Source: Takakia lepidozioides
Lineage: Eukaryota > Plantae > Bryophyta
Direction: 5' to 3'
DNA: 64,000 bases
Assembly (NCBI GenBank): GCA_030704615.1
Contig: CM060731.1
Coordinates: forward strand, 71,734,001 to 71,798,000
Each line of letters begins with the position of its first letter. The first letter of the stretch is position 1. The notes beneath the pieces are model-generated. The model worked only from the letters and a program-made list of their open reading frames with translations, was not told the origin of the DNA and did no database searches. Of the stretch, positions 9,251-34,470 are shown one piece after another. Position numbers and translations under genes: made by a program.

Positions 9251-10454
9251 TCGGGCTTCATCCCTTCCCCCATCATTTGGTCATGATAGGTCTCCAAAGG
9301 CTCCATCCCACTTCACTGATGTGCACATCCTGCAAGCATCGCGCTCCACGACACCACATCTTGTTCAGCCATATTGTTGAACACTCCCTCCGCATCCTCA
9401 ATGCTCTCACATATATTTGGCATACATGTCCACGAGGGCATTGTTCAGAATCGCATCTGTTACAATTCCAGCTTTGGTGATGCAACCATGCACCACTTTG
9501 CCCTTTTGCAGGGCTGCCAGACTTGCACACGCACTGCAAACGCACAATCTTGTTCAACCATAATGTTGCATCCTCAATGCTCCCACATTGGGCATACATG
9601 TGTCCACCAGAGCAGTCATGTTCAGGATGACATCTGGTACAATTGCAAATTGTCACGATGGATCTCTTTGCCCTTTTCCAGGGCTGCCAGGCTCCCACAC
9701 TCACTGCCAACACACACAAATGTTATGTGGTCGGGCTTCACCCTTCCCCCATCATTTGCTCATAGGTCTCCAAAGCCTCCATCCCATGCCCCTGCAAGCA
9801 TCGCACTCCACGACACCACATCTCGTTTAGCCATGGTGTTGAACACTCCCTTGGCATCCTCGATGCACCCACATTTGGCATATATTTCCACCAGGGCAGT
9901 GTTCAAAATGACATCTGGTAATCTGCCAGGCATTCACCTTTTTGCCTCGGTTGTCCCACCATTGACTGGATCCGAAAAGTATTCATTCCACACCTTCTCC
10001 TCATCTCTTGTACCTGTTTTTGGATACTTTCCTGTTGTCACATTGGCAGTATCATGTCAAAGTCACTTCAATCTGTCAAAGATTCACTCAACCAGCTAAC
10101 TTGCATAATTCAACATGGAAATTTAGGGCTGATTCTGATAAGGGGGAAAAATAGGGTGAAATGTGTTGAAGAAGGTGCCCTCATCGCCTGATTTTACCAA
10201 TTGTGCCGCTGCTGCTGCGGCTTCCAGTTGATGGGGGCTGCTATTTCATGAGCGGCATGAGCATGAGCGGAAAAAAAAAAAAGCATGAGCAGACCATTGT
10301 GAGTCCACGGAAATAGGGTTAGGAGGCACGGAAATAGGGTCATGTGAAGTTGGAATGTGGCACCAGTGGACTTGAAATGCAACATTTTATTGCAAATTTT
10401 GTGGCAAGCCACGTCTATACAAGTGTGTTCTAACTGTCATAGCCGGAATGGGCA

Positions 10455-13400
10455 CTACTCTTCTACACCCTCCGAGGAACTTGCCCCACCTTCTTCCTCA
10501 TCCCCCTCATCCCCCTCATCCTCCGAGCTCTGTGATGCATCAGTTCCACTATGCCTCTCAAAAATCCCGTCCTCTCCTTGGGGGACTATCCACCTCACCT
10601 CCTGGGAATCTTCTGCGTCTTCTCCCCCACTTTCCTCAGCAGAATCCAAGACAAATCTACGAGCCCGACGGGCTCTAATAGCTGTTGCCTCCTCCCTCAT
10701 CTTCATTTTCTTGAGGCTTGCCTCGTCTAAAATCTGCTGTACACGACTAGGTTCGGAACACCTCCTAATGGACACCGAAGCAAGCCGGGCAGCATAAGTA
10801 GGAAGGATGTACTCCCTTTCTGGACTAGGCATGAAATCCCCCCTGGCAAAAAAAAGCACGTTCCTCCTGCCCATGAACTCCGGTGTAGACGTTCCTCCGG
10901 CAGTACTTGGCATCCTACAGTAAGAACAAATCCACTTGAAGAATGTCAATACCAGCACAACCAGAAAGGGTTTTCAATGAAATAAGAGAGCGGAGGGAGG
11001 TGCCTCACGAAATCTGGAGGCAACTTACAATGCCACCACTTACTCGTAAACCGGGGGCTCCTCGGCCTCGATCCCAACTTCCTCCCCCTGCTCCTTCTCG
11101 GATTTTTCCTCATCCTCCGAGGATGCCTCTTCCTCTTTCGGCAGACGTTCAGCCGCTGCAAGTTCCGAGTTGTGGAGGGCAGTATCTGGCTCGAAGGCGA
11201 ACACATGCCTGTCGGACAACGTCCCTGCCCACATTGAAGCACCTGAGGAACAAAGCGGGCGGTTAATAGCTTGCGGCATGCAATTGCAATCGGGCCAGGG
11301 GACAAACTGAGCACGTGAAGGCTTACCCGTGCTGCATGTGAGGTCCAGAATCCGCCCTTGGACATCCGAGCACGTCTCCATGAGGGTTTGGATGAAAGCA
11401 GGGCTCCGGGTCTGGCTGTACCGCCACGGTTTGCCTGTCTTTGTGTCCTTTGGCATACTGGAGTGGGGCACATAGTTGTAGAGGACATCGTAGGTTACAG
11501 GGTCCACAACGGCATCAACAAGACGACCGTCGTTGCGGAATTTGAACGTAGACCCTCTCTTCACAAAGCAATATGCCTCAAACACCAATGTCTGCACATC
11601 CAACAAAGAAGGGATCAACTCCAGGGTCTACTTAACATACACCACAATATGAAGTGAATGCAATAGATTGATAACTTACACTTTGGCCCTCTGTTCACAA
11701 CCCCTGTGTACTGATGCAGAACCATTTTCTGAGGAGGACCGGGGTGACACTTTTCGGTGTCCACCTTGCCACCGCATTCTCTGTGGTCTTCCCTCTCGTG
11801 GCAAGGACAACCACACATCCACCGTCATCCAGAAGCATCCCCGTCAGCCCAAACCCGGCTTTCCAGTAGTCCTCTGTAAACCTGTTCCAGGTGGGCACAC
11901 CATCCAGGCCCTCCAGCAGCTCCCCATCTGGAATGTCAAGGAGAATCATGTCGCAAGCTCTCTCCACCTCAACCCCCCCCCCCGAGTGCTCTTGCAATTC
12001 GTGCTCACAGTCGTGAAGAATTCCATCATGGCTTCAAAACCAGGGGTGTCTTTAGGCTCTGTACCGCCAGCCCTCTTCTTGGCTTTCCCCTTCTGCTCCG
12101 CCAGAGACTTGCTGTGTGCCACCTTCTTCGCCCTGGCAGCAAGAGCGTCAAGGAAGCTCTCATTGACGCATTGGATGATGGTTGGAGGTTCTAGTTTTGG
12201 CCTGTGCGTAAACGTCACCGCCGAATACCGGCGTGTAGGCTCGCCCTCAAATGCCAACTTCTTGGCAGAGCCAGTCCCACTCCGAACTGACTTGGGAACC
12301 CGGACGACCGGTGACTGGGTAGGAGCAACAGCAGTCGCAGGACCTTGAACACTCTCTTGGGTCCCCTCCTGCGCCTCCTCCGATGCCCCGATGGTTTTCT
12401 TCTTTTTGGGTGTTACTGCACTCACCTGTTTCCTTGTCCTTTTCCTTTGGCCTTTACTCTTCTCATGCAATTTCTCCTGAATTCCTGCCTGAGCAAGCTC
12501 TGCCGCTTTCCTGGAGTTCGCAAGCGCTTTTGCCACTTTTGCACCCAACGGAGGCAGCGGAGCCCGGTTTCGTCGGAATTCAGCATCCAGCTTCAATTGA
12601 AACTCCGATGGGTCGAGCGAGCCGGGCGGAAGGTCCACATACCAAGGGCAATCACGCAAATGTTCCAGATGCCACTCCTTCACAATATCGTCAGTGTACA
12701 TGGAGTCAACCCCAGGGTTCCTCCATGCCAGGAAGAATGGTGGCTCGAAAGACAGATGACCTTTCTCCAAAAGGGAGAACTTGCAGTACCTGCATTCATG
12801 AAAAACACAATGAGGTCCCTGAAATGCATATTCGGCACCATTTTCCCAGGTTGGGGCGGATGTGAGTGGGCCTAGAAATGGAAAAATGGCGCCGAATTTC
12901 CAGTTCCGGGCCAGCCACCCTAGGGACTTAGCCCGAAAATGGCTAAGTCCCTGAACGGCAATAGGGCCTAGAACTGGAAAATGGCGCCGAATTTCCAGTT
13001 CCGGGCCAGCCATCCTAGGGACTTAGCCCGAAAATGGCTAAGTCCCTGAACGGCAATAGGGCCTAGAACTGGAAAATGGCGCCGAATTTCCAGTTCCGGG
13101 CCAGCCACCCTAGGGACTTAGCCCGAAAATGGCTAAGTCCCTGAACGGCAATAGGGCCTGGAACTGGAAAATGGCGCCGAATTTCCAGTTCAGGGCCAGT
13201 TCAGGGCCAGCCAGTCTAGGGACTTAGCCATTTTCGGAGCCCTGACTGGAAATTCGGCGCCATTTTCCCTAACACCACATGAGGCCTCTAACATCCTGAA
13301 ATGCAAGGACTTGAAAGAAAGGCAGCGCGTATGTACCTGTACAGAAGGCGCATTGCTGCTTTGTTCGCGTTCGGCTGGTCGGTGAACTCGTGGCTCCGGC

Positions 13401-14330
13401 GAGCATCTGCTATCTCCCGAAAGAATAGGTTGGTTTTGTAGAGCAGAAAGTACCTCATCACATAGTCACGTAGGCTCTCTGTTGCAGGAGATATCTCCAT
13501 CTTGAACTGATGTGCTTGTGTGTCCAGCTGCTCTTGCGCATTGGTCGTCACCTGTGGAGATTCTCCATCAGATAGCTTTCCTGAAAAAATACAATGAATC
13601 CACCCCCTACTAGAGTAGAAGCCCCAAACGAAGCGTGGGGAAGTACCTGAAACCACCATGTCATGCGGTTCATCCACATGTCGAATGTGGGGTCAGAGAG
13701 TTGTCCGGTTTGGGGAAGCTCCACATGTCCCTCGTACTTTGGGAACCATTCCAGATTTGGAGCCACCGGGTCTGTCCAACCACCCAGCATATTCGTAAGC
13801 GCCAAACTCCACAAAAAGGAGTTGTTGCCACCACAATTTGGTTAAGAATGTATCACCTTTTCTGTTGCATCCACACAGGATGTGGCTAGACGATGGAGCT
13901 TCTCCAATGTCATCGTGGGCTTCAGAGCGCGAGAGTAGTGCTTCCCCACCTCCACCAGAAAGTCGGCACCAAGGGCGGGATCAGCTATGGCCACGTACTT
14001 TACCATCCGCGACTTGTACTTTATGCGGGCCCTCACCTCCGCAGCTTTGACATACGATTCGAGTTCCGGGAGGGTTGGATTCTTCTCCTCTGGCTCCATG
14101 TAGAACCTCCGCGCATGTGCCAAATCCTGCTGTATTTTCGTCTGTCAAGAATGCGCACATAAGATTAGAGATCCTGCTCAACACAATTTCTTCTATTGGG
14201 GGAGGAGATTAGAAATCACAGTGAAGACCTTTTCTTCTATTGGGGGAGGAGAGACAGATTAGCTCAACAAAACTGTCAGGAGCTTTACCCGAAATATGTA
14301 GTCCACCATGGCGTCGACGCTTAGCCTATA
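10455..14330 (-). pseudogene. Duplicated 3' part of the ParB-MTase-like gene (includes the MTase-like exons)
   Basis: Exons with DMILLDIPDG, RSPAFIQTLMETCSDVQGRILDLTCSTG and ASMWAGTLSDRHVFAFEPD. Introns include 11628-11679 and about 11244-11326. In-frame TGA at 11695-11697. Confidence 0.7.
12865..13270. repeat. Intronic 95-bp tandem repeat with two palindromes (about 4 copies; about 6 error-ridden copies at 16940-17545)
   Basis: Unit holds CTGGAAAATGGCGCCGAATTTCCAG and the stem-loop GGGACTTAGCC-N7-GGCTAAGTCCC. GGCGCC at 12888, 12983, 13078, 13173, 13256. Confidence 0.92.
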
Positions 14331-14571
14331 CCAGGTTCTGTCTGCCTTTGGGGGGCTGCTATTTCATGAGCGGCATGAGCATGAGCGGAAAAAAAAAAAG
14401 CATGAGCAGACCATTGTGAGTCCACGGAAATAGGGTTAGGAGGCACGGAAATAGGGTCATGTGAAGTTGGAATGTGGCACCAGTGGACTTGAAATGCAAC
14501 ATTTTATTGCAAATTTTGTGGCAAGCCACGTCTACACAAGTGTGTTCTAACTGTCATAGCCGGAATGGGCA

Positions 14572-17500
14572 CTACTCTCCTACACCCTCCGAGGAACTTG
14601 CCCCACCTTCTTCCTCATCCCCCTCATCCCCCTCATCCTCCGAGCTCTGTGGTGCATCAGTTCCACTATGCTTCTCAAAAATCCCGTCCTCTCCTTGGGG
14701 GACTGTCCACCTCACCTCCTGGGAATCTTCTGCGTCTTCTCCCCCACTTTCCTCAGCAGAATCCAAGACAAATCTACGAGCCCGACGGGCTCTAATAGCT
14801 GTTGCCTCCTCCCTCATCTTCATTTTCTTGAGGCTTGCCTCGTCTAAAATCTGCTGTACACGACTAGGTTCGGAACACCTCCTAATGGACACCGAAGCAA
14901 GCCGGGCAGCATAAGTAGGAAGGATGTACTCCCTTTCTGGACTAGGCATGAAATCCCCCCTGGCAAAAAAAAGCACGTTCCTCCTGCCCATGAACTCCGG
15001 TGTAGACGTTCCTCCGGCAGTACTTGGCATCCTACAGTAAGAACAAATCCACTTGAAGAATGTCAATACCAGCACAACCAGAAAGGGTTTTCAATGAAAT
15101 AAGAGAGCGGAGGGAGGTGCCTCACGAAATCTGGAGGCAACTTACAATGCCACCACTTACTCGTAAACCGGGGGCTCCTCGGCCTCGATCCCAACTTCCT
15201 CCCCCTGCTCCTTCTCGGATTTTTCCTCATCCTCCGAGGATGCCTCTTCCTCTTTCGGCAGACGTTCAGCCGCTGCAAGTTCCGAGTTGTGGAGGGCAGT
15301 ATCTGGCTCGAAGGCGAACACATGCCTGTCGGACAACGTCCCTGCCCACATTGAAGCACCTGAGGAACAAAGCGGGCGGTTAATAGCTTGCGGCATGCAA
15401 TTGCAATCGGGCCAGGGGACAAACTGAGCACGTGAAGGCTTACCCGTGCTGCATGTGAGGTCCAGAATCCGCCCTTGGACATCCGAGCACGTCTCCATGA
15501 GGGTTTGGATGAAAGCAGGGCTCCGTGTCTGGCTGTACCGCCACGGTTTGCCTGTCTTTGTGTCCTTTGGCATACTGGAGTGGGGCACATAGTTGTAGAG
15601 GACATCGTAGGTTACAGGGTCCACAACGGCATCAACAAGACGACCGTCGTTGCGGAATTTGAACGTAGACCCTCTCTTCACAAAGCAATATGCCTCAAAC
15701 ACCAATGTCTGCACATCCAACAAAGAAGGGATCAACTCCAGGGTCTACTTAACATACACCACAATATGAAGTGAATGCAATAGATTGATAACTTACACTT
15801 TGGCCCTCTGTTCACAACCCCTGTGTACTGATGCAGAACCATTTTCTGAGGAGGACCGGGGTGACACTTTTCGGTGTCCACCTTGCCACCGCATTCTCTG
15901 TGGTCTTCCCTCTCGTGGCAAGGACAACCACACATCCACCGTCATCCAGAAGCATCCCCGTCAGCCCAAACCCGGCTTTCCAGTAGTCCTCTGTAAACCT
16001 GTTCCAGGTGGGCACACCATCCAGGCCCTCCAACAGCTCCTCATCTGGAATGTCAAGGAGAATCATGTCGCAAGCTCTCTCCACCTCAACCCCCCCCCGA
16101 GTGCTCTTGCAATTCGTGCTCACAGTCGCAAAACCAGGGGTGTCTTTAGGCTCTGTACCGCCAGCCCTCTTCTTGGCTTTCCCCTTCTGCTCCGCCAGAG
16201 ACTTGCTGTGTGCCACCTTCTTCGCCCTGGCAGCAAGAGCGTCAAGGAAGCTCTCATTGACGCATTGGATGATGGTTGGAGGTTCTAGTTTTGGCCTGTG
16301 CGTAAACGTCACCGCCGAATACCGGCGTGTAGGCTCGCCCTCAAATGCCAACTTCTTGGCAGAGCCAGTCCCACTCCGAACTGACTTGGGAACCCGGACG
16401 ACCGGTGACTGGGTAGGAGCAACAGTAGTCGAAGGACCTTGAACGAAGTCGTTGTCCGAGTCACTCTCTTGGGTCCCCTCCTGCGTCTCCTCCGATGCCC
16501 GATGGTTTTCTTCTTTTTGGGTGTTACTGCAGTCACCTGTTTCCTTGTCCTTTCCTTTGACCTTTACTCTTCTCATGCAATTTCTCCTGAATTCCTGCCT
16601 GAGCAAGCTCTGCCGCTTTCCTGGAGTTCGCAAGCGCTTTTGCCTCTTTTGCACCCAATGGAGGCAGCGGAGCCCGGTTTCGTCGGAATTCAGCATCCAG
16701 CTTCAATTGAAACTCGGATGGGTCGAGCGAGCCGGGCGGAAGGGTCCACATACCAAGGGCAAATCAGCAAAATGTTCCAGATGCACTCCTTCACAATATC
16801 GTCAGTGTACATGGAGTCAGCCCCAGGGGTCCTCCAGCCCGGAAGAATGGGATGGCTCGAACACAGATGACCTTTCTCCAAAAGGGAGAACTTAACAGTA
16901 CCATGCATTCATGAAAAACACAATGAGGGCCCGAAAATGGCTATTCCCTGAACGGCAATAGGGCCTAGAACTGGAAAACGCGCCGAATTTCCACTTCATG
17001 GCCAGCCAGTCTAGGGACTTAGCCCGAAAATCTAAGTCCCTGTGGACGCAATGGGCCTAGAACTGGAAACGGCGCCGAATTTGCAGTTCCCGTCCCCGGC
17101 CAACAGTCAGGGACTTAGCCCGAAATGGCTAAGTCCCTGGACGGCAATAGGGCCTAGAAACTGGAAAACGGCGCCGAATTTCCGTTCCGGGCCAGCCACC
17201 CTAGGGACTTAGCCCGAAAATGGCTAAGTCCCTGGACGGCAATAGGGCCTCTAGAACTGAAAACGGCGCCGATTTCCAGTTCCCTCCGGTCGCCACCCGA
17301 GGGACTTAGCACACGAAAATGGCTAAGTCCCCTGGACGGCAATAGGGCCTAGAACTGGAAACGTCGCGAATTTCAGTTCCCCGGGCCAGCCACCCTAGGG
17401 ACTTAGCCCGAAAAATGGCTAAGTCCCTGGAACGGCAATAGGGCTAGAACTGGCAAACGGCGCCGAATTTCTCAGTTCCGGGCCAGCCCTTCTAACGGAC

Positions 17501-20252
17501 TTTCAAATTTTCCGAGCCCTGACTGGAATTCGGCGCCATTTTCCCTAACACCACTTGAGGCCCCTCTAACATCCCTGAAATTGACAGCACTTGAAAGAAA
17601 GGCAGCGCAGTGTATTTACATACCTGTACAGAAGCGCCTTGCTGCTTTGGTCCGCGTTCGTCTGGTCGGTGAACTTCGTGGCTCCAGCGGGCATCTGCTA
17701 TTCTTTGTCCGAAACAATAGGTTTGGTTTTTGTAGAGCAGAAAGTACCCCCGTCGCACATAGTCACGTAGGCTCTCTGTTGCAGGAGATATCTCCATCTT
17801 GAACTGATGTGCTTGTGTGTCCAGCTGCTCTTCGCGCATTGGTCGTCACCTGTGGAGATTCTCCATCAGATCGCTTTCCTGAAAAAATACAATGAATCCA
17901 CCCCCTACTAGAGTAGAAGCCCCAAACGAAGCGTGGGAAGTACCTGAACCACCATGTCATGCGGTTCATCCACATGTCGAATGTGGGTCAGAGAGTTTGT
18001 CCGGTTTGGGGAAGCTCCACATGTCCCTCGTACTTTGGGAACCATTCCAGATTGGAGCCAACCGGGTCTGTCCAACACCCAGCATATTCGTAAGCGCCAA
18101 ACACCACAAAAAGGAGTTGTTGCCACCACAATTTGGTTAAGAATGTATCACCTTTTCTGTTGCATCCACACAGGATGTGGCTAGACGATGGAGCTTCTCC
18201 AATGTCATCGTGGGCTTCAGAGCGCGAGAAAGTAGTGCTTCCCCACCTCCACCAGAAAGTCGGCACCAAGGCGGGATCAGCTATGGCCACGTACTTTACC
18301 ATCCGCGACTTGTACTTTATACGGGCCCTCACCTCCGCAGCTTTGACATACGATTCGAGTTCCGGGAGGGTTGGATTCTTCTCCTCTGGCTCCATGTAGA
18401 ACTCCGCGCATGTGCAAATCCTGCTGTATTTTCGTCTGTCAAGAATGCGCACATAAGATTAGAGATCCTGCTCAACACAATTTCTTCTATTGGGGGAGGA
18501 GAGACAGATTAGCTCAACAAAACTGTCAGGAGCTTTACCCGAAATATGTAGTCCACCATGGCGTCGACGCTCAGCCTATACCAGTTCTGTCTGCCTTTGC
18601 CTCCGACTTGCGCAGGAGGTCGGCACTGAGGGAATTGACAAACTCTTGCACCCCCTGCTTCCCGACATCCTTCACTCGGAAGAGCATATGGGACAAGTTG
18701 GTGGCAATGAAGGCATTCTCAGTCACCCTGCAGTGCCACATTTCTATCAAACAATACTGAAATGGGAATTTTCATCATATATAAGGATTCGCAATGAAAT
18801 GACTTCCAAATTCAAGTCCAAAAGCGAGAGGGGTTGTAGCTTACGAGTTGATGTCGGCCATTGCAGCTTTGAAAAGACTACGATCTTTGGGCCCGCAACC
18901 TTCAGCACAACACAATCCACGGCGAAATGCCAATCGAGGTCGTTGGGGTAGGCTTGGGCAATGTGCTCCATCCATGCCAGGAGGCGATGATTGCCGTCCC
19001 ACATGTAGAACATCTTACCGGGACAAGTGCTGGAAAAGAGGATCACTAGCAATCGATCTCTCGAACTCCTCATTTCGCGTTTGCCAATGGGGACCCCATT
19101 TGTCCACCTCATCGGAAGTGTGGGCACGGGAAGCTCCGTGGTCGTTCTCAATGGAAACGTAAAAGGCGGCAGACCCCATTCGATATCCATCCCGGAAAGA
19201 GAATTTCAGCTTGTTGATATCGCCTGGGAGGGCAGGTCTCACCACCTGCAATGACACCAAGCGGCAAAGGGGAATTCGAAGCTTGGCCGGGTACACCATC
19301 CCCCCCAGCACCCTGCCAATGTTGCTGTGGGTTGCCTCCAACATCTTGGCAGCGGCCAACTTCATATCCGCCTCAGACATGACGTTTGCTGCAGAGGGGT
19401 TTTCCGGCAGCCCACCAGGACCGCCAATCCAGCCTGTATGCTCCGGGTTTGGGGCCTGGGGATGTCCGGGAGGATGTCATCCTGGTCAGAAAGCTCCCTG
19501 TCGTCCTCCTCAACAGGGTCAGCCACCTGCGAAACCACCTCCAGCACTCTCCCCGTCTCTACTGCCCTCTCCCTGGCTTCACCTCGAACTTGCACAATCC
19601 GTGCTCTTTCAGGTGTTCTTTCCTCTCCTCCACTCTCCACCGTATGGGTAATTGCGGGGGCTGCTCTTGCCCGCGATGGTCTAACCGGTGTGTTACTGCC
19701 TCTCTGTGGTGTCTTGGAGGGATCCATCGTCTCTGTGCGTCCCTCGCTTACATTGGCATCTGTCATTTGGGCACCCCTGGCCTCTTCAACTGCCTTTTCT
19801 CTTTCCTCCTGGCTAGCATTCTGTCTCGTCTGCTCTTTTGCCCTCTCTTTTGCCCTCTCACGGGCTTTCTGTTTCTTACTAGGGCTAGCAGCAGGGGAGC
19901 CCTCCAGGACGACCACCTTTGATTGAGGCGAACTGACACCCTTGCGCGCACTGCTCACTCCCCCCTCCGCAGCCCGTGACTGCTCTCTCGCCGGGGATTG
20001 CATGTGCTTAGCTTTCTTCTTTTTCTTTGCGTGGGCGGGCCCTACTGCATGTGCATGAACAACCTCCATTGCCGGATCTGCTGTCCTCATGTCCTCACGC
20101 CCTTCACCTGCCATGTCGCCTGCACCAACCTCCCCAATGCCATGCAACAACAATGAAAACAAATGCAACCATTGCCTGAGAATGACATGCACAAGCAGCC
20201 TTCTCCAGAGCTGCCGGATTTGCACACGCATTGCAAACAATCTAAGGTTCAT
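14572..20252 (-). CDS. Multi-exon accessory gene: low-complexity N-terminus, ParB/Srx-like domain, beta-class N4/N6 DNA methyltransferase-like domain, acidic tail; disrupted as assembled
   Basis: ParB-like: LRIPLCRLV..VVRPA..DINKLKFSFRDGY..FYMWDGNHRLLAW (about 18900-19290). MTase motif IV-like DMILLDIP precedes motif X/I-like SPAFIQTLMETCSDVQGRILDLTCSTG..RHVFAFE. GT-AG introns join in frame. Start codon uncertain; several frameshifts and one TGA. Confidence 0.68.
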
Positions 20253-20759
20253 TCAACTATCTAAAGTTCACTCATACAGCGAAGCCAGGATGAAGATGCA
20301 AAAACAAAGCGAGGTAACAAAGCGAAAGCAAAAAAGAAATCGAACAAACCGAAAGCAGAAGTGGCTTGCCTGAGAGTACTCGGCTTCAATTGGCACAGGT
20401 TGTGAGCAAGACACTGGAATCTCCTGCTGGAGCTTCAGTTTGGCCATGCGAGAGATTGGCCGTCGTCCGTAGTACAGAGCTTTCAACTTCCGTCGCGGTC
20501 TGGATGTGAGGTCTCTCTCAGGAGAGCCACGCCCTTCAGGCGGCATAAGTCCCAGCCAAAAAGATCTCCTTTTTTGGGGTACATGCCTCGAATAGCATGT
20601 TAAGCCAAGATTAGCATGAGATTTAGGGTACGTGTCCAGGAAGCCATGCGTCGCTAGCCCGAATGATAACCGACGGCGGTCGACATTTATTGCCCAACTG
20701 CGCAATTAAATGTCGGATGAAGCCCTCCATGTCGGATGAAAATCGACGTAAACAGTCCC

Positions 20760-22660
20760 GGAATTTCCAACGTAGAGGTAATTCGGAGCGCTGCACGATG
20801 GAATTCCGGCGCCGGATTTCCATCCTGCAGGTAATTCGGAGCGCAGCAGGATGAAAATTCAGCGCCGAATTTCCATCCAGCAAGGTAGGCGGCGCTGGAA
20901 ATTTCCCTCACGCAGGTAATTCAGAAGCGGGCGGATGGAAATCCGGCGCCGGATTTCCATCCGCGCAGGTAGGGCGTCGCGCCAAATATCCCTCACGGAG
21001 GTAATTCCGAAGCGCGCGGATGGAAATCTGGCGTCGAATTTCCATCCGCGCAGCTCGGGCGGCGCGCCAAATTTCCCTCACGCAGGTAATTCGGAAGCCT
21101 GCGGATGGAAATCCGCCGCCGAATTTCCATCAGCGGAGGTCGGGCGGCGCGCCAAATTTCCTCACGCAGGTAATTCGGAAGCGCTCGGATGGAAATCCGG
21201 CGCCGAATTTCAATCCGCGCAGGTCGGGCGGCGCGCCAAATTTCCCTCACGCAGTTAATTCGGAAGCGCGCGGATGAAGATCCGGCGCCGAATTTCAATC
21301 CGCGCAGGTCGGGCGGCGCGCCAAATTTCCCTCACGCAGGTAATTCGGAAGCGCGCGGATGGAAATCCGGCGCCGAATTTCCATCCGGCATGTAATTCGA
21401 ATACCGGGTGAATGGAAATTCGGCGCCGAATTTCCATCCAGCAGGTAAGTGGAATCCCGGATGGATGGAAATTCGGCGCCGAATTACCATCCTGCAGGTA
21501 ATTCGAATCCCGGATAAATGGAAATTCGGCGCCGAATTTCCATCCAGCAGGTAATTCGGATCGCTGGCGTATGGATATTCGGCGCCGAATTTCCATTCGC
21601 CATGTATTTCATCGCTCAGAATTACCATCCTGCAGGTAATTCCCAGATGAGAATTACCTTCCTACCGGCATCGATAGGAATTACCTTCCTGCAGGTAATT
21701 CGCATCTGGGAATTACCTGCAGGAAGGTAATTCTGAGCGATGAAATACATGGCGAATGGAAATTCGGCGCCGAATTTCCATTTATCCGGGATTCGAATTA
21801 CCTGCAGGATGGAAATTCGGCGCCGAATTTCCATCCATCCGGGATTCCACTTACCTGCAAGATGGAAATTCGGCGCTGAATTTGGATCCATCCGGGATTC
21901 CACTTACCTGCCGGATGGAAATTCGGCGCCGAATTTCCATCCATCCGGGATTCCACTTACCTGTAGGATGGAAATTCGGCGCCGAAATTCCATCTGGGGG
22001 ATGGTCTCTGTCGGAGAGGTGCCGCCTCTCCGCCGCTCTGTTGGATATTCGGTGCCGAATTTCCGTCCGGGGGTTGAAATATGACGGCCAGGTGCCGACC
22101 TCTCCCCCCTCCCCGACTGCATTGGAACGGCCCCGGATTGAAATTCGGCGCCGTTTTCCCATCTGGGGAGGTTTTTATGTCGGCCAGTTTTCGGTCTGAC
22201 CCCCCGACAAGACTTCCTTTGGAGGGGCCCGGATGGAAATTCGGCGCCGAATCTCCATCCAGGGGATGCTCTCTGTCGAACACGTGCCGACCTCTACGCC
22301 CGAGGCGACTTCATCCGGGCGTCCCCTGTTCGATATTCGGTGCCGAATTTCCGTCCGGGGGTTGAAATGTGACGGCCAAGTGCCGGCCACTCCCCCCTCC
22401 CCGACTGCATCCGAACCGCCCCGGATGGAAATTCGGCGCCGTTTTTCCATCTGGGGATGTTTATATGCCGTCCAGTTTTCGGCCTGACCCCCCGACACGA
22501 CTCCCTTTGGGGGGCCCGGATGGAAATTCGGCACCGAATCTCCATCCAGGGGATGTTCTCTGTCGCACACACGCCGGCCTCTGCGCCCGAGGCGACTTCA
22601 TCCGGGCTTCCTCTGTTGGATATTGGGTGCCGAATTTCCATTCGGGGGTAGTAATGTGAC
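20760..22660. repeat. Composite palindromic repeat region between the divergent genes (85-, 53- and 96/288-bp units)
   Basis: About two dozen variants of the 30-bp palindrome GGATGGAAATTCGGCGCCGAATTTCCATCC. Large inverted symmetry centred near 21670. Confidence 0.92.
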
Positions 22661-23279
22661 GACACGGTGCCGGCTTCTCCCCTTCAGCCGTCATCATCCG
22701 GACGGCCCCCCACTTTCTGACTGCATACCGTTGGCAGTTATTGCGCAAAGACCAGGGGCCGCATTCCGGAGACAAGGTTCATTAACACTCTGACTGTGGA
22801 TTTTTCAGATAGTTGGCTCCCTGGATTTGGATCAGGCTTCGTCGCTCGGACAAATCGGCATCGCATTCATTCCCATCGCTGCACCCCCTTCTACCAGGGA
22901 GCTTCCCCGCACGCCATCCTGGCAGTCTTGTGTGCACATCTCCCATGGCGGAAACCCGAGCGCTACAGTGTACTGCCCTCCTCACGAGCATAGAGCTTCA
23001 TCGCCGTGCAGAGGGGACATCTGCCGGGTGATGGAGAAATATCTGTGCGTTCGATACCACCTGAAACCGGGGTCGGTATTTTTGGAGGAGGAAAGGAAGG
23101 ACTCTAACGGACTTGTTGTCGAGAGTATTGTTGTGCTCCACGATGATTTCGGCGATGGCAGGGAATGACGAGTTCCACCATCGGACAACGTCATATACAG
23201 GGCTGTTGGGGACTTCATTTGCCCGCCAAATGCACCTTCTATCCTGGCGCCTTCCACGAAACAATCCGCGAATCAGAGA

Positions 23280-26200
23280 ATGGCTACCTCAAAGAGAGAA
23301 GTCCGGAACGAAGTAAATCCAGAGCCGAACCCATCCATGAAGACGAGCGAGAACCGGGTTGTTCACAACCTGTCCGACTCAGACGAGGTCATGGAAGTTC
23401 CGAGGTCGTCCTGGAGATCAGGCAAGTCCTCAATGGACATCAGTGGAGGAGGGAGTCATATTCCCAGCACGAGCACCGCAGTTCGATCTATTCTTGAAAT
23501 TCTGCGAGGGCTTCACCTGGAAGGACACCGGTCGGAGCTGGCCGGGCTGGACTACAGCAAGTTCGCAATTAAATCGGTTACATGGCTTCCCGCCGACGTC
23601 GACGGTAATATCTTCTTTGAGTTCCCTCCTCGGGCGGACTACTCGAGGGCGTCCGGAATGTTGACAGATATGGATAGAAAACATGACGGTCATCCTTGGT
23701 GCGTTACCAAAACCACCAGCATGAAGATGCTCGATGGTGTGCGGGTGCGCTACGTTGTTTGTGCGGGCGCGTTGCAGTGTTTCTCCCCAACTTGCTTCCA
23801 CTTTAAATCCAGAGGTAACAGGAACGAGACCGATTGGACAGGCACAGCTCACCAACCATTTCGAGCTCAGGAGAAGGTTCCGAACTCCACATTTAAGTGT
23901 GCGCATTGCAAAGAACCACCACACTGCATGTCTGTTTGTAATGCCAAGCAGTTCTATATGTTGCACCGTTTCCTTGACCTCACCCGAGCTTGCATACACG
24001 TTGGTTCCCATTGTCACAAATTGGCGAGGGGGAACTCGTGGGAGGCTGCCCACGAAGCAGAGCAGCTCGTTCAGGAGGAGGTTAAGTTGAGACCGGGTGC
24101 CAAACCCAAACAGATACAGCTCCAAGCCGCCCATAAGATGGCATTGGCCAAAATTATGTCGGAAGACGGCTCCGATAGAGTTCCTCTCGACGAGAAGGAA
24201 ATGGAGGCATTGCTGGAGTCGGTGTCCCACGTATGTTCACAGAATGTCCGAAACCACATTGTCTCATGCAAACAGAAAATTGGGCGTGGCTCGGATATGC
24301 ACTCCATTCTGGAGGTGAAGCGACGATGTGGATATGACTACATTCATGGAAGTAGGTTTCCAGGACAAGGGACTGAGGCAGATCGTTGTTTCGTATTCAA
24401 AATGTCCACGTGTGGACCTGGCAGCGGCGTCGAACTGGTCGACAGGATGATGAGAGGGAACTTGTCAAACAGTTGGGTCATGTTCGACCATATCAAGCGA
24501 ATTACAAATCACCAGTGGGTGACAATGGGTGCACATGTCTACGACACCCACTGCAGGATGCTAATGACAATTGCTATTTGTGAGATGAAAGGAGAGGACA
24601 CACAATCGGAGATGCTTCTTTGGCAGGGAATAAACGAACAGATGGCCAAGGCGGGATTGCCCCCTCCCAATTTCCGTGGTTTCATGGCGGACTACGCACA
24701 AGCAAATTGGGCTGCCATCCGAAGGGTGTACGGGCAAGACCCCAATGTTCCCATGGAAGGCAAGGAGAGATCTTGTGGGTTCCATTTTCTGCAGAGCCTT
24801 TCGCAGTACACAACCAGGCTCGTGGCGCCAGATTTCAGAGAGGAGCACCGTTCCATGTGCCTTGCGTGGAAGCGCGCTCCCACCTTGGATGATGCAGAGA
24901 CACAGTTTGCATGCAGACGGGCTTGGTGGACATCGTCAAGTGCTGTAAGGAAATCAGACGAGGGAGCAATGGTCAGTTGGCTAGCATGGTGGCATTATCG
25001 TTTCCTCCAGTTCGGCGACTATATGCGGGAGGTGAGTTGCACGAATTCGCGTCCCGTTGAATATTATTCTTGGCCATATTTGTAACTTGCTTGTAACCTG
25101 AACATGTGCTTGTGCAGGAAATGTGTCTCGACTCCGACACCGACATGCCCACGACAAACATGGCCGAATCAGTGCACTTTTCCTGGCGTGCCTCCTCTGT
25201 GGCGCATCTGGTGGACATCCTCACTGCCACAACGGAGGACATTGTGAGGTCAATTATGCAACAATGCAGGTACAACGAGTTCTTGAAAGGGAAACAGTGG
25301 GGCTTGGGGCCGGACAGGCAGGAAATGCTGATGCGGACTGCCTCCAGATCGAAGAATCCTCGGAAGTGGGCGGCGGCCTTGCGAGAGGGCCTTCGGGACA
25401 CGCCATTGCTGCGAAGATGCCAACATTTGGAAGGAGATGTTCACACCTGTCCAGTGAGACGAAGACTTGACGAGGCACCTGGCGGAGAAGAGGATTCATG
25501 GCGAGCTGACAAGAATATTCGCACGCTCCCTCGTGGTCCGGTGATGTTGCCCGAGGAGGTCTCGTCGAGCACCGCAAGTCCTGCACGTTCAAGATCGCCA
25601 TCTCCTTTGAGCACAGGGCGCGTGCCCCGGCAACATAACGAGCCATCTGTAGTAAAGCAGTACAACATTCCCATTGTGGAGACAAGAGTGTCGGAGTCAC
25701 AGTGGAGAATTGCGAGGACATTGCCGGCATTTCGAGGGAAGTACTGCGCCATCCGGGTGGATACGAGAGCACGCTGTGGTGAGATGATTCGGAGAAACCC
25801 ACACGGTGCTGTACCTGCACCTTGTTTCAGCGGCAGATTTTTGACTCCCACATTTGCTCATGCCACAACGCAGACATTTTGGTTCTGTAGGCACGACATA
25901 ATGACCTGTGTATTTGGCAAGCCCAAGTACGGGATTCAGGGAATGCCGGAGCCTCCGGGCGTCTGGCCTGTTGCACCGGGTTGCAGCCTCTCTCAGAATG
26001 AGGCGGATGCTCTATCTACAGCAGGATTTCGAATGGTGCAACGCACAGACATCCCGGCCCACGCATTTCCGGTTCCTCAGACCCAGCCATTGCAGACTGC
26101 TCGGTCCAGTAGAGACGGATTGGACAATTCTGCACATCCCACAATGCGATTCGGAAGAGTGAAGAGACGACACCCTCCCAACAAGTTGAATGAGACTCGG

Positions 26201-26536
26201 ATTGCCAATGCTCTTGGGATGGCTTGCACTATTCAGAGCTCCGTGGACGTACCCCCACCCGGCCTTGGGCGTGTGTATCGGATGGCAACGGCCGGCTCGG
26301 CTGTACGCGACGATGTATACACAATTACGATTGGAGTGGAGCCGACTTGCAATTGTACGGACTTCTCGTTGATGGAAGCAAAGAAGGGTTCGAAGTATTA
26401 TCCGTGCAAGCATCTGTATTACATCTACCTGAAGAGGTTGAGGATGAACGTGACTATTGATGACTTTATTCAGGCACCGGCGTTGAGCGTGAACGAGCTG
26501 CACAAACTCCTCCTTAGGGATTCCAGAAATCATTGA
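23280..26536 (+). CDS. MULE transposase, two exons (23280-25031, 25118-26536), about 1056 aa, apparently intact
   Basis: DDE candidates VMFDH, FMADY and TTNMAES; CxxH motif CGFH; C-terminal SWIM finger CNCTDF..PCKH; N-terminal Cys/His cluster (WRKY/GCM1-like by inference). In-frame GTGAGT..TGCAG intron. Confidence 0.88.
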
Positions 26537-26689
26537 TGGGGCAAAGGGAATCCTCCATATGGATATTTTCAATTGCATTTTGCTGTATCAGACTTTTTTT
26601 TGCAGTGTAATGAAATGCACCCCAAAACTCCTGGAATGAGGCAATATTCCATTCAAACTGAGATCCAACAGAAGCAGTTGTGGGGCCAT

Positions 26690-27125
26690 TTCTGGAAAAA
26701 TGGCGCCGAATTTCTCTTTTTGGGGCCGAAAACTGGCTAAGTCCCAACATGCACTGGTACCTGTGTCTGGGAAAATGGCGCCGAATTTCTCTTTTTTTGG
26801 CCGAAAACTGGCTAAGTCCCAACATGCACTGGTACCGTGTCTGGAAAAATGGCGCCGAATTTCTCTTTTTTGGGCCGAAAACTGGCTAAGTCCCAACATG
26901 CACTGGTAAAGTGTCTGGAAAAATGGCGCCCAATTTCCCTATTTTGCGCCGAAAACTGGCTAAGTCCGAACATGCACTGGAAAAATGGCGCCGAATTACC
27001 TGTCATGAGGGGACCTATAGCCGCGGAATTCGGCACCATTTTTCGCCAGAGAGACCTATTACCGCGAAATACGTCGCCGTTTTTTCAGGTTACGGACCCT
27101 ATTACCGCGAAATTCGGCGCCATAT
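26690..27125. repeat. Right subterminal ~74-bp tandem repeat
   Basis: GGAAAAATGGCGCCGAATTT plus a GGCTAAGTCCC half-site. GGCGCC at 26702, 26777, 26851, 26925, 26987. Confidence 0.9.
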
Positions 27126-27861
27126 TTGCACATGTCGCTGGGAATTGGCATGAGCGGAAAACAAAATATCATGAGCACAACTGTCAAAACTGCAATTTTC
27201 CCTTCAAGGAGCCGAATAATATATTTGTTTTTCCTGACACATTGCATTAAATTATTGTTTTTTATTGTTTTTTATTTTCGAAATTTGTACTTCTGCTCAT
27301 GAAAACCGATTGTCTTACTACTCCGCTCATGCCGCTCATGCTCATGAAATAGCAAACCTCCAGTTGACCATCTACCCATGCAGGTTTCTTGTAGCTATCC
27401 TTCCACAAGGAATCATAGGCAATGTTGTGCTTGAAATGTGGCCCTCTTGGATGAATCTGGACCCACACTCTATCCCTGCTCCTTCAGCTATCCATGCTTA
27501 TTATTATAAATCATGCATACATCTTTGCCTTGCTAGTAGCAACTGACAATAACAGCCTACATTTGTTCTAGGAAACACCCATCTCAACTTCTCACACTAG
27601 TTCCTATGCTCAATTGCATCTGCTACTCTCTATAATCCAACATGCATTCACCTTTTTGCCACAATTGGCCCACCATTGACTAGGGTCAGAAAAGTATGCA
27701 GGCCACAACTCCATGACTGTTTAGGGTTCACTGTCACAAATGAAAGTGTGTTTGTCAGAATTTTTCCCACCCCAACAGCTCAGTCACTCCCACCCATGCA
27801 AGGTACCATGCTGTATCAAGTCTAAACCCTGGAAAAATACATGCAATAGTAGAAACCAACT

Positions 27862-30800
27862 CTAGACCATAGCACAACTGGCCTGGTACCTCCCATGTGG
27901 AGCTTGCCTCCGCCTTCTACCATTTTGCCTCTGCCTTGCAAGTGCATTCAAGTTGGCAATGGCCAATTCATCTGCCTCACTCAAAGGAACACAAACAACA
28001 AGCTCAGTCATGATGTTATGAGGAATTTCAGGAGGCACCATGCCTACATAAGTGTCTCCCTCACCCAGTGCCACTTCTGTAATATCGTGAACCACTCGTC
28101 GGGATCGAGGGTCCTTGTGAAGGACCACCTTCCAGTTCCCTCGTGAACTTTTTTCATCCGAGAAAAAAACTTGCTCCACCTGACTAGGGAATGTCCAGGG
28201 CTGCTCCATCCGAGGTAACATGCGACTGAAGTCAACCAAGAGAAAGCCATAATCATCTCGTTTCATGGTGGCATTCCAGCCCACCATGTGTGACCTCACC
28301 CATCTACACAAGAACAGAATTGGGTGAAGAATTCCGTAATCCAGTTGAATTATTTCTGTTACAACACCCACATATTCCAATTGGGATAACACTCGTTTGG
28401 ACATACCTGCTCTGTTTTTGCTTTCCTGATGGAATACTTGAGCAACTCCAGAATCAAATGTCACCCTGTCTGTGGCGCCAGTCCCATCACGTATTGCTCG
28501 AAAGTGATTGCCGTAAGCATACATGGACTTGAAGCCCAAGGACTGTACTGCTGGTGGTATACATATATGGCATATGTCCAAATCATAGGACTCACCTGAA
28601 CTCACCTTGCGTTGGACAGCACCTTCAATCCATTCATGGAATGGAGCCAGTAAGCGCATGTCTGTTGGGTATGGAATTTCTCCATTGTGGTGGTCTTGGT
28701 CTTGTCCACAAAGGAATGTTGTTCTGAACTCAGTGCGGGATGCTTCTATGAGTGCCATCTCCTCTTCATAGGCCCTGTCCAAATGAGAATTGCAAATTAG
28801 GATTACAGCTTATACCATTGGCAGAAATGAAACACACAGGATATGATAAGCAACATACTTACTCAAGGAATGGTTTCATGCAATCTGTGTTGTGCAAAAT
28901 ATACTCGTGTGCACTGTCTCGTTCTTGAATGGTGAGGACTCGTACACTTCCCAATCCTTGAACCACCTCCCTACTAACTGAGTCTTCTTCATTGGAGTCC
29001 CACACCCTTCGGCTTGTAGCATGAAATTCAGCCATATACTCAGTTAGAAACCCTAGGGCCTCATCCAAAGCATACCCTTCCGCCATGCTCCCTTCAGGTC
29101 GGCTCATATTCCTTACATAGCCTTTTAATGTCTTCATATACCGTTCCATAGGATACATCCAACGGCTAGACACGGGACCATATACCTCCAATTCGTCCAC
29201 AAGGTGTACAAGCAAGTGAGTCATGATATCAAAAAATGACGGAGGGAATTCTTTCTCCAGCAGACACATAGTGATTGCAACATCTTCTTTTAAGGCCGGT
29301 AGCTTAGTTGGATTAATGATCTTTGCACACACTTTTTGGAAGACTCGAGAAAGCCTCATAATTGCCATCCGTGGACCCTTTCCCAATACCCCTCGAATGC
29401 AAAGAGGTAAAATCTGCTGCATCATTACATGGTAGTCATGGGTTTTCATTGTAGACAGTTTATTGTCAGCCACATGTTTCTGGAATGTGGCAGCATAACC
29501 TGTGGGGGCCTTTACTGCAGCCAATGTTTCCAAAAACAACACCTTCTCATCTTCAGTAAGAACATATGGGGCCAAAGGCTTCACCAAGTTGTTCGGGTGA
29601 GAGGGATGGGGTCTCAACCACAAGTGTTCACGAATGACATTGAGTTCCATATCCTTCCTAGATGTGGCTGTGTCCTTCTCCCCAAGAATGGTTCTCAGCG
29701 CATTCTCACACAAATTTTTTTCACAATGCATCACATCCAGTGTGTATCGGATGAGGAAGTCTTTCCAGTATGGCAATTGGTTCAAAACAGTGACCCGTTT
29801 CATGCCATGTTCCTTTGAAGGGTCCTGTTTTCCCCCCTCAGCCCCTCCCATTGCGAGATACAACTCTCTGGTTTTAGCCCGGTCAAATTGCTCACTTGCA
29901 GTGACCACCATAGGAGCTGCTCTATGTTCCACATGTCCATTAAAGTGGGACGAGTTATTCCTATAGGGATGAACAGCAGGCAAGTATCTCCTATGACCAA
30001 GATACAAAACTTTTTTGCATGCCTTCAAGTACCTGGAATCAACATTAGGGCCGCAAGCTGGGCAGGCCTTGTATCCCCCGTGTGCGCATCCTGCTAGCAA
30101 CCCATAAGCTGGAAAGTCGTGGATTGACCACATCAAGATGGCCCTCATGCAAAATGACTGTTGCCCCACTAGGCTACTTCCATCCAATGCCTCCACACCA
30201 ACTTCCCACAACAATTTTAGCTCATCCACAAGGGGCTGCAGATAAACATCTGCATTGTCATTTCCCACAGATTGTGGTCCAGGAATCAATAAAGCCAACA
30301 TCGTGAAAAATGGCTTAGTACACAGCCAGGGTGGAAGATTATAGTTTACCAACATGACAGGCCAAGTTGACCATTTGTTTGATTTATCACTGTAAGGATT
30401 GACACCATCCCATGCGAGACCCAATCGCAGATTTCTGGGGTCCGCTGCAAACTCAGGCCATTTTTGGTCAATGTGGGCCCAAGCCTTGCTGTCTGCTGGG
30501 TGCCTAACCAAGCCATCCAGACTTCGATTCTTAAAGTGCCATGACATTAACTCTGAGATGGATTTGGCTTTATACATTCGAAGCAGCCTTGGAATGATAG
30601 GGAAATGTCGAAGGACCTTACGAGGTACTGGTGTCTTCGTACTCACCACATAACGACGTGCCTGACATTTTGGACAAACCTCCAAATTCTGAAGCTCCCT
30701 TCTGAACAACACACAGCCTTTCGGACATGCATGTATACTCTCGTAATGAAGCCCGAGTTCCATTATGAGTTGTTTTGCCTCATAGTGGGACTTTGGCAGG

Positions 30801-31671
30801 CAATTGTCTGCTGGCAACAGTTGTCTTCCTAACAATGTAAGGAGTTCATCGACAAAGGTGTTTGACACACCATGGGTTTGACAAGCATTTAACAGCAGTA
30901 AGGTAGCAGACAATCGAGAGGAAGAACTCCCTACATATAAAGCCCTGGATGCCTCGTGCTCAAAACGTAAGGCACTCGCTGCACCACGATCACCATCGCT
31001 CTTCAGTCCACCATCAGTCTGCTCTGGCACTCCATCTGTGTCCCATTGGCCCTGTGTTCCATCTCCCGGTTCCTCATGTGCATCACCAGTTTGCACCCCA
31101 TTATCTATAGTTGCGAATGTCTCCCGGAGCATTCTAAGCATGTCAAGATTACGATCCAAGGTATCAGGACCACTGCAGGGCTGGTTTCCGTTCTAAACCC
31201 CTCATGTTCGTCTCCAGAGTTTTCCTGCTTAGTACATATCAGACGCCACATGTCAATCCACTATAAGATGGGGAGTTTTTTCATTTGCAATAGTGGATGT
31301 GGAACGTGCCATTATACAGGCACGTGGCAATAGGAAAACGGACATGTACAATACTCTACACCTTACAACAATACCACTACCAGGAATTTGAACTGTTTCT
31401 TATAATTTCAAAGTATGCATCTGCAAAGGGAAGAGAATCCAGAGATATGCACCGGGAGTTCTCGTAAGTTAGGATCTCGCAAGTTCAAAAGCAGATGACG
31501 CTTAGCCCGGCCAATGGTTTGCCAGTTCCCACCATGACAGGCATTGCATGGACATAGAATTTTCCGAAGACCCAGTCTTCTTGCTCGCGCTTCCTCTAGT
31601 TTCCACAATCTGTCATCGTCATGTTCTGCTTGTGTCCGCCTTTGCAATCGATGGGCAGTAGGAGGGATCAT
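27862..31671 (-). CDS. CACTA/En-Spm Tnp2-type transposase (exons about 31408-31671, 28859-31250, 27862-28775)
   Basis: ILCPCNAC N-terminal motif; IHACPKGC; DPRNLRLGLAWDGVNP; HDFPAY; LDVMHCEKN; SRWMYPMERYM; DUF4216-like C-terminus (DDYGF..FPSQVEQVFF). Long open frames. No TIRs recognised. Confidence 0.9.
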
Positions 31672-33068: not shown

Positions 33069-34441
33069 TCAGGTTAAAGAGGAGAAGTAGGGATTGAATT
33101 CTGTCTTGAAGTTGATGGATTGAACCGTCTCTGCCAACGCCTGATTTATGTTGACAACCCGCATGGGATCGCTACCGTGCTTGATAAGCTTGTTGACAAT
33201 ACCATCAGGTCCACCAGCTTTATATCCATTTAAATGTTCAATTGCTTCCACAATCTCAGAAGGACTAATGGGAGCGTTATAAGCCATTGAAATATACTCC
33301 AGTTCATCAGGGCTGTTTTGCATCATAGGAACAGTTTTTCCAACTGTGTCCCTCCATTCAGTAGAAGACCCCTCATTGTTAGACCTAGAAGTTATGCCAA
33401 GGATACTGTAGTTTCAAAGGTTTTGACAATGTCAACCGATGAAGTCACCACTGCACCTTTAGTAGTCTTCAGCGCTTGTTCTTGCTGACCATTTTTCGGC
33501 TTGTACAAATGTTGAAGGGCCAACCAGAATTTCTTGTCATTACCACCATGGTGGTTTGAGTTTATTTCACTGTATAACTTGTCCCAGTATAATTTCTTCT
33601 GAGACCTAACAAGCTGTTTGATATCTTTACGGAGCTGGTAGTACCTCGCCCACAATTCTCTGTTGGTTTCCAAATTGCAGCACTCTTTATAGAGGGCTCG
33701 TCTCTCAGCTATCTTGAGTTTAATCTCATTGGTCCACCAATTAACAGCTCTACCATAGACAATTAGTTTCATCCCAATGATCTTGTCAACCACGGAGGAA
33801 ACGAAACTCTCCCAAGAGTCCCCTGCTCTTTCGACTTCATTTCTTGCGTTATCAGAGCGAGACTGAAGTTCTTGGAGTGATTGGACAAAATAAGGGAGAG
33901 CCTCTTGCAAGGGCTGGACATACTCAGCCTTGACCTCCTCATTATGGAGTTTTTCTATGCGCCACTTCCGAATCGAATGTTTCACATATCTCTTGGTGTT
34001 GGGAAAACACCTTTTGATCTCATTCCAAACCAGGAAATGGTCAGAGGTACCAATATCAGTTCTGTCGATCAACACATTGGCACACTGGGGGAACAAATTT
34101 TTGTCCATTATGATATAATCCACAATGGAACGTTCCCCAGTTTGGGATTTCTCACGAGTCCACTGCACTTGGTCACCTCTTGTCCTGTTATTCAAGGTCA
34201 AAAGCTGAAGATCTTCTAGACAATTAATTAACCGTCTGCCATTAGAATTCAGTTCGTCCTCACCAAAAGGTCCAATGATATCGTCCTGATGGAGCCCTTT
34301 GCCCACCCGGGCATTGAAGTCACCCAATAGCACCACCTGACCTTTGGCAAGGAACGAAGCACAGTCCAGCTTTACATCTTCGAAGGCTTTGTCTGCATCA
34401 GCACAAAGCGTCCCCTCTGTGGGCATGTAAACACAACCCAC
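33069..34441 (-). mobile_element. LINE ORF2 fragment: AP endonuclease, linker and start of RT
   Basis: VYMP, LLGDFNARVG, SIVDYII, SDHFLV, then KAGGPDGI. Frameshifted and truncated. Confidence 0.88.

Positions 34442-34467: not shown

Positions 34468-34470
<3 letters not shown>

Follow-up and report, generated by a model that had tools for sequence, protein, structure and literature searches.

What keeps the copies of a palindrome at whole turns of the DNA helix in a plant transposon? The question is raised by a 64,000-nt stretch of the Takakia lepidozioides genome, here called the window, in which GGCGCC occurs 41 times against 9.6 expected, about a fourfold excess that none of 100 shuffles reached. 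GGCGCC is the centre of a longer unit, the perfect 24-bp palindrome TGGAAATTCGGCGCCGAATTTCCA.

Palindrome arrays in a Mutator-like transposon

Between 20808 and 22626 (region 20760-22660), 24 palindrome sites form a central intergenic array (20799..22640, unstranded like all arrays described here) with spacings of 53, 84-85, 53, 185, 53, 73 and 95-96 bp. A sequence-only reading of this DNA had given positions and spacings for the GGCGCC core, and every one of them was reproduced on remeasuring. Several of these positions hold variant cores, for example GGTGCC at 22051, 22339 and 22626 and GGCACC at 22530. The whole-turn spacing proposed there holds for 22 of the 23 central intervals (53, 84, 85, 73, 95 and 96 bp), which lie at most 1.2 bp from a multiple of 10.6 bp; the sole interval out of phase measures 185 bp. 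Further sites occupy an intron array of the element's second gene (first copy at 12825..13270 in a 547-nt intron, spacings 54, 95, 95, 95 and 83 bp; second copy at 16929..17550, with many single-base indels) and a right subterminal array (26693..27130; spacings 75, 74, 74, 62, 86 and 43 bp). Among these are in-phase intervals that had been overlooked: 54 bp (12834-12888) and the 86 and 43 bp of the right array, as well as 53 bp (20808-20861) in the central array. Within the 95-bp intron unit there is also a second hairpin, GGGACTTAGCC-N7-GGCTAAGTCCC (12920-12951 and repeats), and one half of this hairpin appears again in the 74-bp right array.

The description of these arrays as four independent repeat types was overstated, as alignment of the linkers shows kinship across types. 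The linkers fall into the groups 53L and 53R; 73, 96a, 96b and 96c; and 95, 83, 74 and 62, with weak links between groups (96b to 74/62, 53R to 96c), and the 85 and 54 linkers match no other linker in the alignment. The 83-bp unit consists of 72 bp plus an 11-bp duplication, and the lengths of related units differ by approximately whole turns (53/85, 73/96, 74/95, 72/83).

The 185-bp gap, singled out before as the clear exception, is indeed off-phase but not unique. It lies within inverted arms of 302 bp (21358..21994, unstranded) whose axis is near 21676, and is composed of 32-bp steps of a second palindrome, GAATTACC-N8-GGTAATTC, together with 15+15 bp and one 59-bp step that breaks the phase. 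This second palindrome has a half-site in common with the main one. When 12 values of the axis gap are compared, six fit 89+32n+53m exactly (185, 249, 249, 281, 302 and 334 bp), each about half a turn off, and the other six miss this series by 2-4 bp; the gap at the equivalent place in family E, a sister family introduced below, is 113 bp. The two halves of the central array face opposite ways.

The host of the arrays is a multi-copy Mutator-like DNA transposon, which we call family A (10233..27360, plus strand, including a duplicated left 4.1 kb). It is flanked by the target-site duplications CAGTTGAT (10225..10232, plus) and CAGTTGAC (27361..27368, plus), which match at seven of eight positions. 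Its termini (left 10233..10290, plus, repeated at 14350; right 27300..27360, minus) carry terminal inverted repeats (TIRs) that are short and imperfect, unlike the long MuDR type, and contain CATGAGC repeats; the terminal repeat of these elements (CATGAGC or GTGAGC) differs from the internal palindrome. No palindrome sites occur in about 2.6 kb at the left end. Family A has at least 40 copies at 99% identity in the genome, and lengths of 13.6-14.5 kb were measured for six further copies whose target duplications match. Mutator-like elements (MULEs) generate target-site duplications of 8-11 bp. The duplications found here, 8-9 bp in six of the seven family A copies with both ends found and 9-10 bp in six copies of families B, C and D with both flanks visible, agree with this range.

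The transposase (23280..26536, plus) has two predicted exons around a predicted intron at 25032-25117. We take its N terminus to be a WRKY/GCM-like zinc finger and its core to be a DDE domain with CxxH after the second D; the alignment keeps MFDH, FMAD and C-x-F-H, with NMAES in exon 2 (motifs assigned by eye). A C-terminal SWIM domain is found by Pfam at E 0.0034, weaker than the curated cut-off. The Pfam MULE profile gives no match for the transposase in the window and matches a distant homolog, P0021, at E 0.18. The central array lies between the two divergent genes of the element, the transposase on the plus strand and the second, accessory gene on the minus strand. In ten further family A copies, one of them a hybrid, the number of units varies and the modal spacings are kept (53, 84-85, 63, 73, 96, 95, 72, 74, 62, 86 and 43 bp), alongside scattered one-off spacings; older subfamilies have 74/72 in place of 95 in the intron.

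Several other features of the locus deserve mention. A single target duplication encloses two versions of the left 4.1 kb (10233-14349 and 14350-18600). They are 89-95% alike and differ by many single-base gaps, mostly frameshifting the second, and reflect either an assembly error or a tandem duplication. Elsewhere, a copy of family B (L025+L026) is inserted at most about 12 bp from the equivalent position in the same flanking sequence (window 27361-27385), a hint of target preference. The neighbours in the window, at 445-4953, 7647-9950, 27862-31192, 33392-34540 and 49448-50410, comprise a Ty3 retrotransposon, PPR-like 129-bp repeats (named by eye), pieces of a CACTA transposase and a LINE endonuclease.

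Helical phasing across sister families

Is the spacing a peculiarity of one element? Searches with distant homologs in the same genome uncovered sister families B to H, with transposases 35-78% identical among families (that of G lacks the first exon). Each family has its own palindrome around CG-N4-CG. That of family B is AGTGTG-CGTCAACG-CACACT; families C (ACCTTG-), D (GAATGT-) and H (AGGTGT-) have the same centre, CGTCAACG, and the remaining palindromes read GAAATG-CGGCACCG- in E, CATCTC-CGCCGGCG- in F and GAATTT-CGGCGCCG- in G. The arms are family-specific, CG at +/-3,4 is retained at 80-99%, and four of seven families vary at the innermost base. Across families, these motifs are amplified in non-coding tandem repeats and restricted to non-coding DNA (introns, intergenic spacer and subterminal regions); none was found in the three coding stretches counted. 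Family E also has isolated single sites about 1.2 kb apart in its accessory gene, beside exons (L079:3473, 4733 and 5941). Family G (L094:1000-8100; a search with 601 bp of it matched at least 40 copies at 99-100% identity) resembles a deletion derivative, with pieces of both genes only, yet has about 30 phased sites. A candidate transposase-only element without palindromes (L035-L036) was rejected, being 96-97% identical to family B copies.

The tandem units of these families come in eight distinct lengths of about 42, 53, 64, 74, 85, 95.5, 116 and 137.4 bp, which correspond to 4, 5, 6, 7, 8, 9, 11 and 13 turns. With units that were hand-chosen and means read off earlier measurements, the largest deviation from a 10.57-bp period is 0.46 bp, and none of 20,000 random sets fits any period between 8 and 14 bp equally well. 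An automated scan covered spacings up to 300 bp with five mismatches and counted classes recurring in at least two elements; for family G, represented by one element, every class was kept. In families B to G, without A, 34 of 47 recurrent spacing classes lie at most 2 bp off whole turns against 20 expected, a number reached in 0 of 100,000 simulations. Two reservations apply: the classes are not fully independent, and some lengths may have been passed on among related families (95 and 116 occur repeatedly). Restricted to B, C, D and F, the scan has 21 of 27 within 2 bp (P 0.00025). The effect shrinks when singletons are included (45 of 78, where 33 are expected; P 0.0016) and when family A is added to these (56 of 104, where 44 are expected; P 0.0037). 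All 18 scans put the best period at 10.50-10.65.

The individual families differ in how clearly they follow the rule. Sites in family C are mostly dispersed among unrelated linkers, at 95, 95, 137, 157, 116, 83, 116, 87, 202, 118 and 42 bp, and ten of these 11 are within 2 bp at a period of 10.55 in a hand list that left out copy-specific variants (C 82, 168, 204 and 214; B 113; D 183, 209 and 218; the A 185 gap). Family F sites are mostly phased. Family D is weak, with five to seven of nine spacings in phase, 111 and 121 bp off-phase, and P 0.06-0.26. Family H came to light once the period had been fixed, and its unit of 137-138 bp corresponds to 13 turns; of its five non-tandem spacings under 300 bp at the cut-off used, four are off-phase (93, 163, 123 and 121 bp) and 127 bp is not.

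As a control, we used de-duplicated tandem repeats from all the DNA analysed, to which 20 stretches of 10 kb, placed arbitrarily, contributed. Repeats near sites are within 2 bp of whole turns in 18 of 24 cases (mean cosine 0.60), against 11 of 37 for repeats without a nearby site (mean cosine -0.15). Since the site-free repeats are unphased, the phasing goes with the sites and does not reflect a bias of the whole genome. Spacing in the sister families, with their different palindromes, is phased and not uniform, and the linkers are not 10.5-bp microrepeats, so neither of the two outcomes that would have spoken against the sequence-only reading was found. Its proposal that selection keeps the sites on one face of the helix is now well supported by the sister families and the control repeats, and we consider it very probable that the phasing itself is under selection.

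The DNA between the sites carries a further signal, absent from the earlier reading. When one element is taken from each family or subfamily, giving 66 linkers (4,143 nt) after de-duplication, and circular shifts serve as the null, AA/TT peaks at 26-27, 35-37, 47-48, 59-60 and 68 bp from the site centres, or 2.5, 3.5, 4.5, 5.5 and 6.5 turns, and is thus half a turn out of phase with the sites (Z -5.5; 0 of 1,000 circular shifts). By family, the signal is found in A, B1, C, D and E (P 0.003-0.05) and in G (P < 0.001), and is not significant in B2 (P 0.12) or F (P 0.40). By autocorrelation, the 95th percentile of random chunks is surpassed in only three of nine site regions. The base pattern suggests that the DNA between sites likely bends in a consistent direction.

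The accessory gene and the candidate reader of the sites

Which protein could read these sites? The whole accessory gene spans 14572..20252 on the minus strand, divergent from the transposase, and an accessory gene is found opposite the transposase in families A to F and H. Its ParB/Srx-fold exon (18844..19428, minus; WDGNHRLLAW) is frameshifted in this copy and open in others. The ParB GxxRxxA box is represented by GNHRLLA in five of five aligned family members; across 60 sequences, G, H and R of the GNHR box are at least 90% conserved and N is invariant. The exon, the first conserved one of the gene, belongs to a family of 917 clusters at E<=0.001. Its predicted structure (pLDDT 92.6) has Noc, Srx, PadC and ParB as top Foldseek rows (best E 0.017, so that no fold match reaches E 0.001), all eight structural matches with Z>=5 are ParB/Srx-fold (KorB: Z 8.0, rmsd 2.4, 90 aligned), and no unrelated fold exceeds Z 3. 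Neither the ParB nor the methyltransferase domain was named by Pfam and PDB sequence profile searches, in which the best relevant row was DndB (E 0.066, in 3 of 60). From the structural model, the second gene is predicted to encode a ParB/Srx-fold domain, a fold also common to sulfiredoxin and SerK.

The C-terminal exons (15160..16964, minus; DIPDG ... LDLTCGTG, recurring at 11043-12833) resemble a beta-class amino-methyltransferase with the motif order IV ... X-I and a SAM motif that looks intact. The nearest named Atlas clusters are N6_N4_Mtase; a model with pLDDT 53.8 gives weak Foldseek matches, with a best E of 0.005, to CcrM, MTA1 and RsrI, and a word-based homolog search found nothing. 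Beta-class enzymes have the catalytic motif (D/N/S)PP(Y/F/W). Here, motif IV reads DIPDG, DCPTG, ELPDG, EAPDG, DVPFG or DFPIG in every version examined, never DPPY or SPPY, which makes catalysis doubtful.

In the middle region, no DNA-binding module or HTH has a significant Pfam match, and a homolog gave only Atlas leads below 0.9. The accessory exons have no Pfam match to the VANC domains DUF1985/DUF287 at E<=1, and no ParA partner was seen in the element, which shows only two genes. Splicing of four CT..AC introns, one of them the 547-nt array intron (spliced joint 12785/13333), is visible in contigs from a run that is guessed to be RNA. The join of the ParB exon to the later exons is in no contig guessed to be RNA (X9, X10); the single homologous ORFs P0082, P0117 and P0128 hold both the ParB-like and the methyltransferase parts. 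In one family A copy (L136+L137:8824-10730), the ParB exon abuts the methyltransferase exons, apparently through an internal deletion of the middle exons and the intron array. A more divergent ParB-methylase lineage (L130-L135, L146-L147), beside which no MULE transposase was detected, has a sparse odd-length palindrome, mostly 186-356 bp apart and not found in L130-L131.

With moderate confidence, we favour an explanation in which the palindromes are family-specific sites held at whole turns, likely bound by dimers of the ParB-fold accessory protein that act cooperatively and keep the genes expressible. Accessory-protein dimers would bind the palindromes of their own family and align on one face of bendable DNA; the aligned dimers would build a cooperative complex in which the two divergent genes of the element stay expressible. 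Symmetric family-specific arms around a tolerant centre point to a dimeric reader that co-evolves with the element, and from the symmetry of the sites we infer that the binder acts as a dimer. Whole-turn spacing over 40-140 bp suggests, by analogy with the plasmid site sopC, that neighbouring readers interact on one face; contact between neighbouring dimers is likely and would explain selection on phase. The binder is probably the accessory protein of the element. The earlier comparison with parS-like arrays is apt in this respect, as the element encodes a predicted ParB-fold domain. Points that speak against this explanation are the weak phasing of family D, the mostly off-phase non-tandem spacings of family H, copy-to-copy linker indels that are not whole turns, the half-turn axis gap, the weak E-values of the fold matches, a middle region in which no DNA-binding module was found and the sparse sites of the more divergent lineage.

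Could the sites be read by the transposase instead, through its WRKY/GCM-like domain, with phasing aiding the looping or wrapping of a large element or activation of its own promoters? In one published case, a Mutator transposase on its own binds its cognate copies and activates them (bioRxiv 10.64898/2026.08.24.746577), and one array is subterminal. The motif also tracks the transposase no worse than the ParB domain: the identity matrices of the two are congruent and no transposase/accessory recombinant was found, and because of this congruence co-variation cannot name the binder. However, the sites are mainly internal, with none in about 2.6 kb at the left end of family A, and the separate terminal CATGAGC/GTGAGC repeat would be a more natural transposase site. 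Moreover, AtMu1 binding peaks at TIRs according to the same source, and Plavaka elements, from an unrelated superfamily, are described with inverted-repeat arrays beside ParB-like genes. The mostly internal sites, the separate terminal repeat and these arrays lead us to favour the ParB-fold protein and to consider binding by the transposase unlikely.

Another rather unlikely explanation is that DNA shape or host nucleosomes are what matters, the arrays being curved or rotationally positioning and the protein site riding on the exposed face. AA/TT half a turn from GC-rich centres is the pattern of nucleosome-positioning DNA, and the linkers have this periodicity, with the three site regions above the random chunks as further support. 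But long family-specific palindromic arms are not needed for shape, and family F lacks the linker signal though its sites are mostly phased. Nucleosomal DNA has a period of about 10.2 bp, at which 116 and 137 bp would be 11.4 and 13.5 turns; the observed 10.57 bp fits free B-DNA better than nucleosome-wrapped DNA. Shape effects and cooperative binding by the accessory protein can be compatible in part.

An accessory protein that is an active 4mC/6mA methyltransferase, with the arrays recruiting chemical marking of the element, would differ from the favoured explanation only in the effector step. The beta-class motif order, the intact-looking SAM motif, the N6_N4_Mtase clusters and the low-confidence matches to CcrM, MTA1 and RsrI are in line with such an activity, which has also been proposed for algal relatives (in the passages of PMC12477816). 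It is made quite improbable by motif IV, which argues for occupancy rather than catalysis. Finally, a neutral origin, from one short helical-turn repeat or from slippage or repair favouring such lengths, could draw on the partial kinship of repeat types in the window and the single 11-bp tandem duplication, but it is very improbable and largely refuted by the unphased repeats elsewhere in the genome, by dispersed sites with unrelated linkers that are still phased, by small copy-to-copy linker indels that are not whole turns (13, 9, 5, 6, 7 and 5 bp beside 11 and 22), so that mutation does not seem to supply the bias, and by CpG-containing sites that are kept while linkers diverge.

Known systems and the meaning of the rule

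We would like to place the favoured cooperative binding by ParB-fold dimers into the context of other transposons and plasmids. In the Ectocarpus element Sola1-1_Ec32, an accessory gene opposite the transposase encodes ParB-like and N4C/N6A methyltransferase domains, and its product is proposed to bind and modify its own element (PMC12477816, in the passages concerned). The Takakia element, compared by description, likewise has a ParB-like and methyltransferase-like gene on the strand opposite the transposase. In contrast to the algal element, it is Mutator-like and resides in a land plant, its motif IV is degenerate, and palindromes and phasing are identified; in the main text of PMC12477816, 'palindrom' and 'helical' occur 0 times. 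PAG3 of red-algal Plavaka elements has a ParB-like N-terminal domain, with adjacent tandem inverted-repeat arrays proposed as targets (bioRxiv 10.1101/2025.02.11.637652), and shares with the Takakia gene the proximity of a ParB-like domain to inverted-repeat arrays. Unlike the Takakia gene, PAG3 is fused to a 2OG oxygenase and sits in an element of the EnSpm lineage; a spacing rule is unreported in the passages concerned, and the main text is without 'helical' or 'palindrom'. ParB-methylase accessory genes and nearby inverted-repeat arrays are thus already published for algal transposons, and what is new is the helical rule across families. In the literature searched (main texts, mostly of openly available papers), there is no report of phased spacing in a transposon, and the consulted passages of PMC4738411 and a Marchantia 4mC preprint contain no description of this element.

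The closest geometric parallel is bacterial. In F-plasmid sopC, a 16-bp palindrome recurs every 43 bp, or four turns, on one face and is bound by a dimer of SopB, a ParB protein, for which a solenoid-like SopB/sopC complex has been proposed (PMC3177203, in part). The Takakia palindromes are similarly arranged in tandem units of whole turns, with a predicted binder. However, they belong to a eukaryotic transposon, have 4-13-turn units and dispersed phased sites, and no ParA or HTH was found. One tentative and, on balance, doubtful extension of this analogy is that the element has rebuilt a sopC-like system, in which a nucleotide-dependent ParB-type clamp or filament would load at phased palindromes and wrap the element in a superhelix that replaces nucleosomes, forming a private family shield from silencing.

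What would the element gain from such a complex? The VANDAL elements of Arabidopsis, which encode VANC, are Mutator-like, have an accessory gene and carry motifs specific to each family, which tandem repeats have multiplied in introns and upstream regions (PMC5735166, in part). The Takakia element is Mutator-like with an accessory gene and amplified family motifs in non-coding DNA, a likeness that is a works-like analogy only. VANC differs in having DUF1985/DUF287 and short non-palindromic motifs, and 'helical', 'periodicity' and 'spacing' occur 0 times in the text of PMC5735166. As the intron and inter-promoter placement mirrors VANC targets, anti-silencing by occupancy is the lead candidate for the function, and by this analogy self-recognition against host silencing has an even chance of being the purpose.

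For ParB-like genes of eukaryotic transposons, a role in reading their own DNA has been proposed, and tests of target or mechanism are absent from the literature examined. Candidate target sites are now defined for eight sister families in one genome. Their geometry follows a rule, n x 10.57 bp and linker bends offset by half a turn, from which one would predict that assembly is cooperative and confined to the same face. If true, this would be a second route of transposon self-recognition, independent of VANC, and a possible source of orthogonal DNA-targeting pairs. Should the sopC-like reading also be true, helical phasing would provide a sequence-only signature for such systems across eukaryotes.
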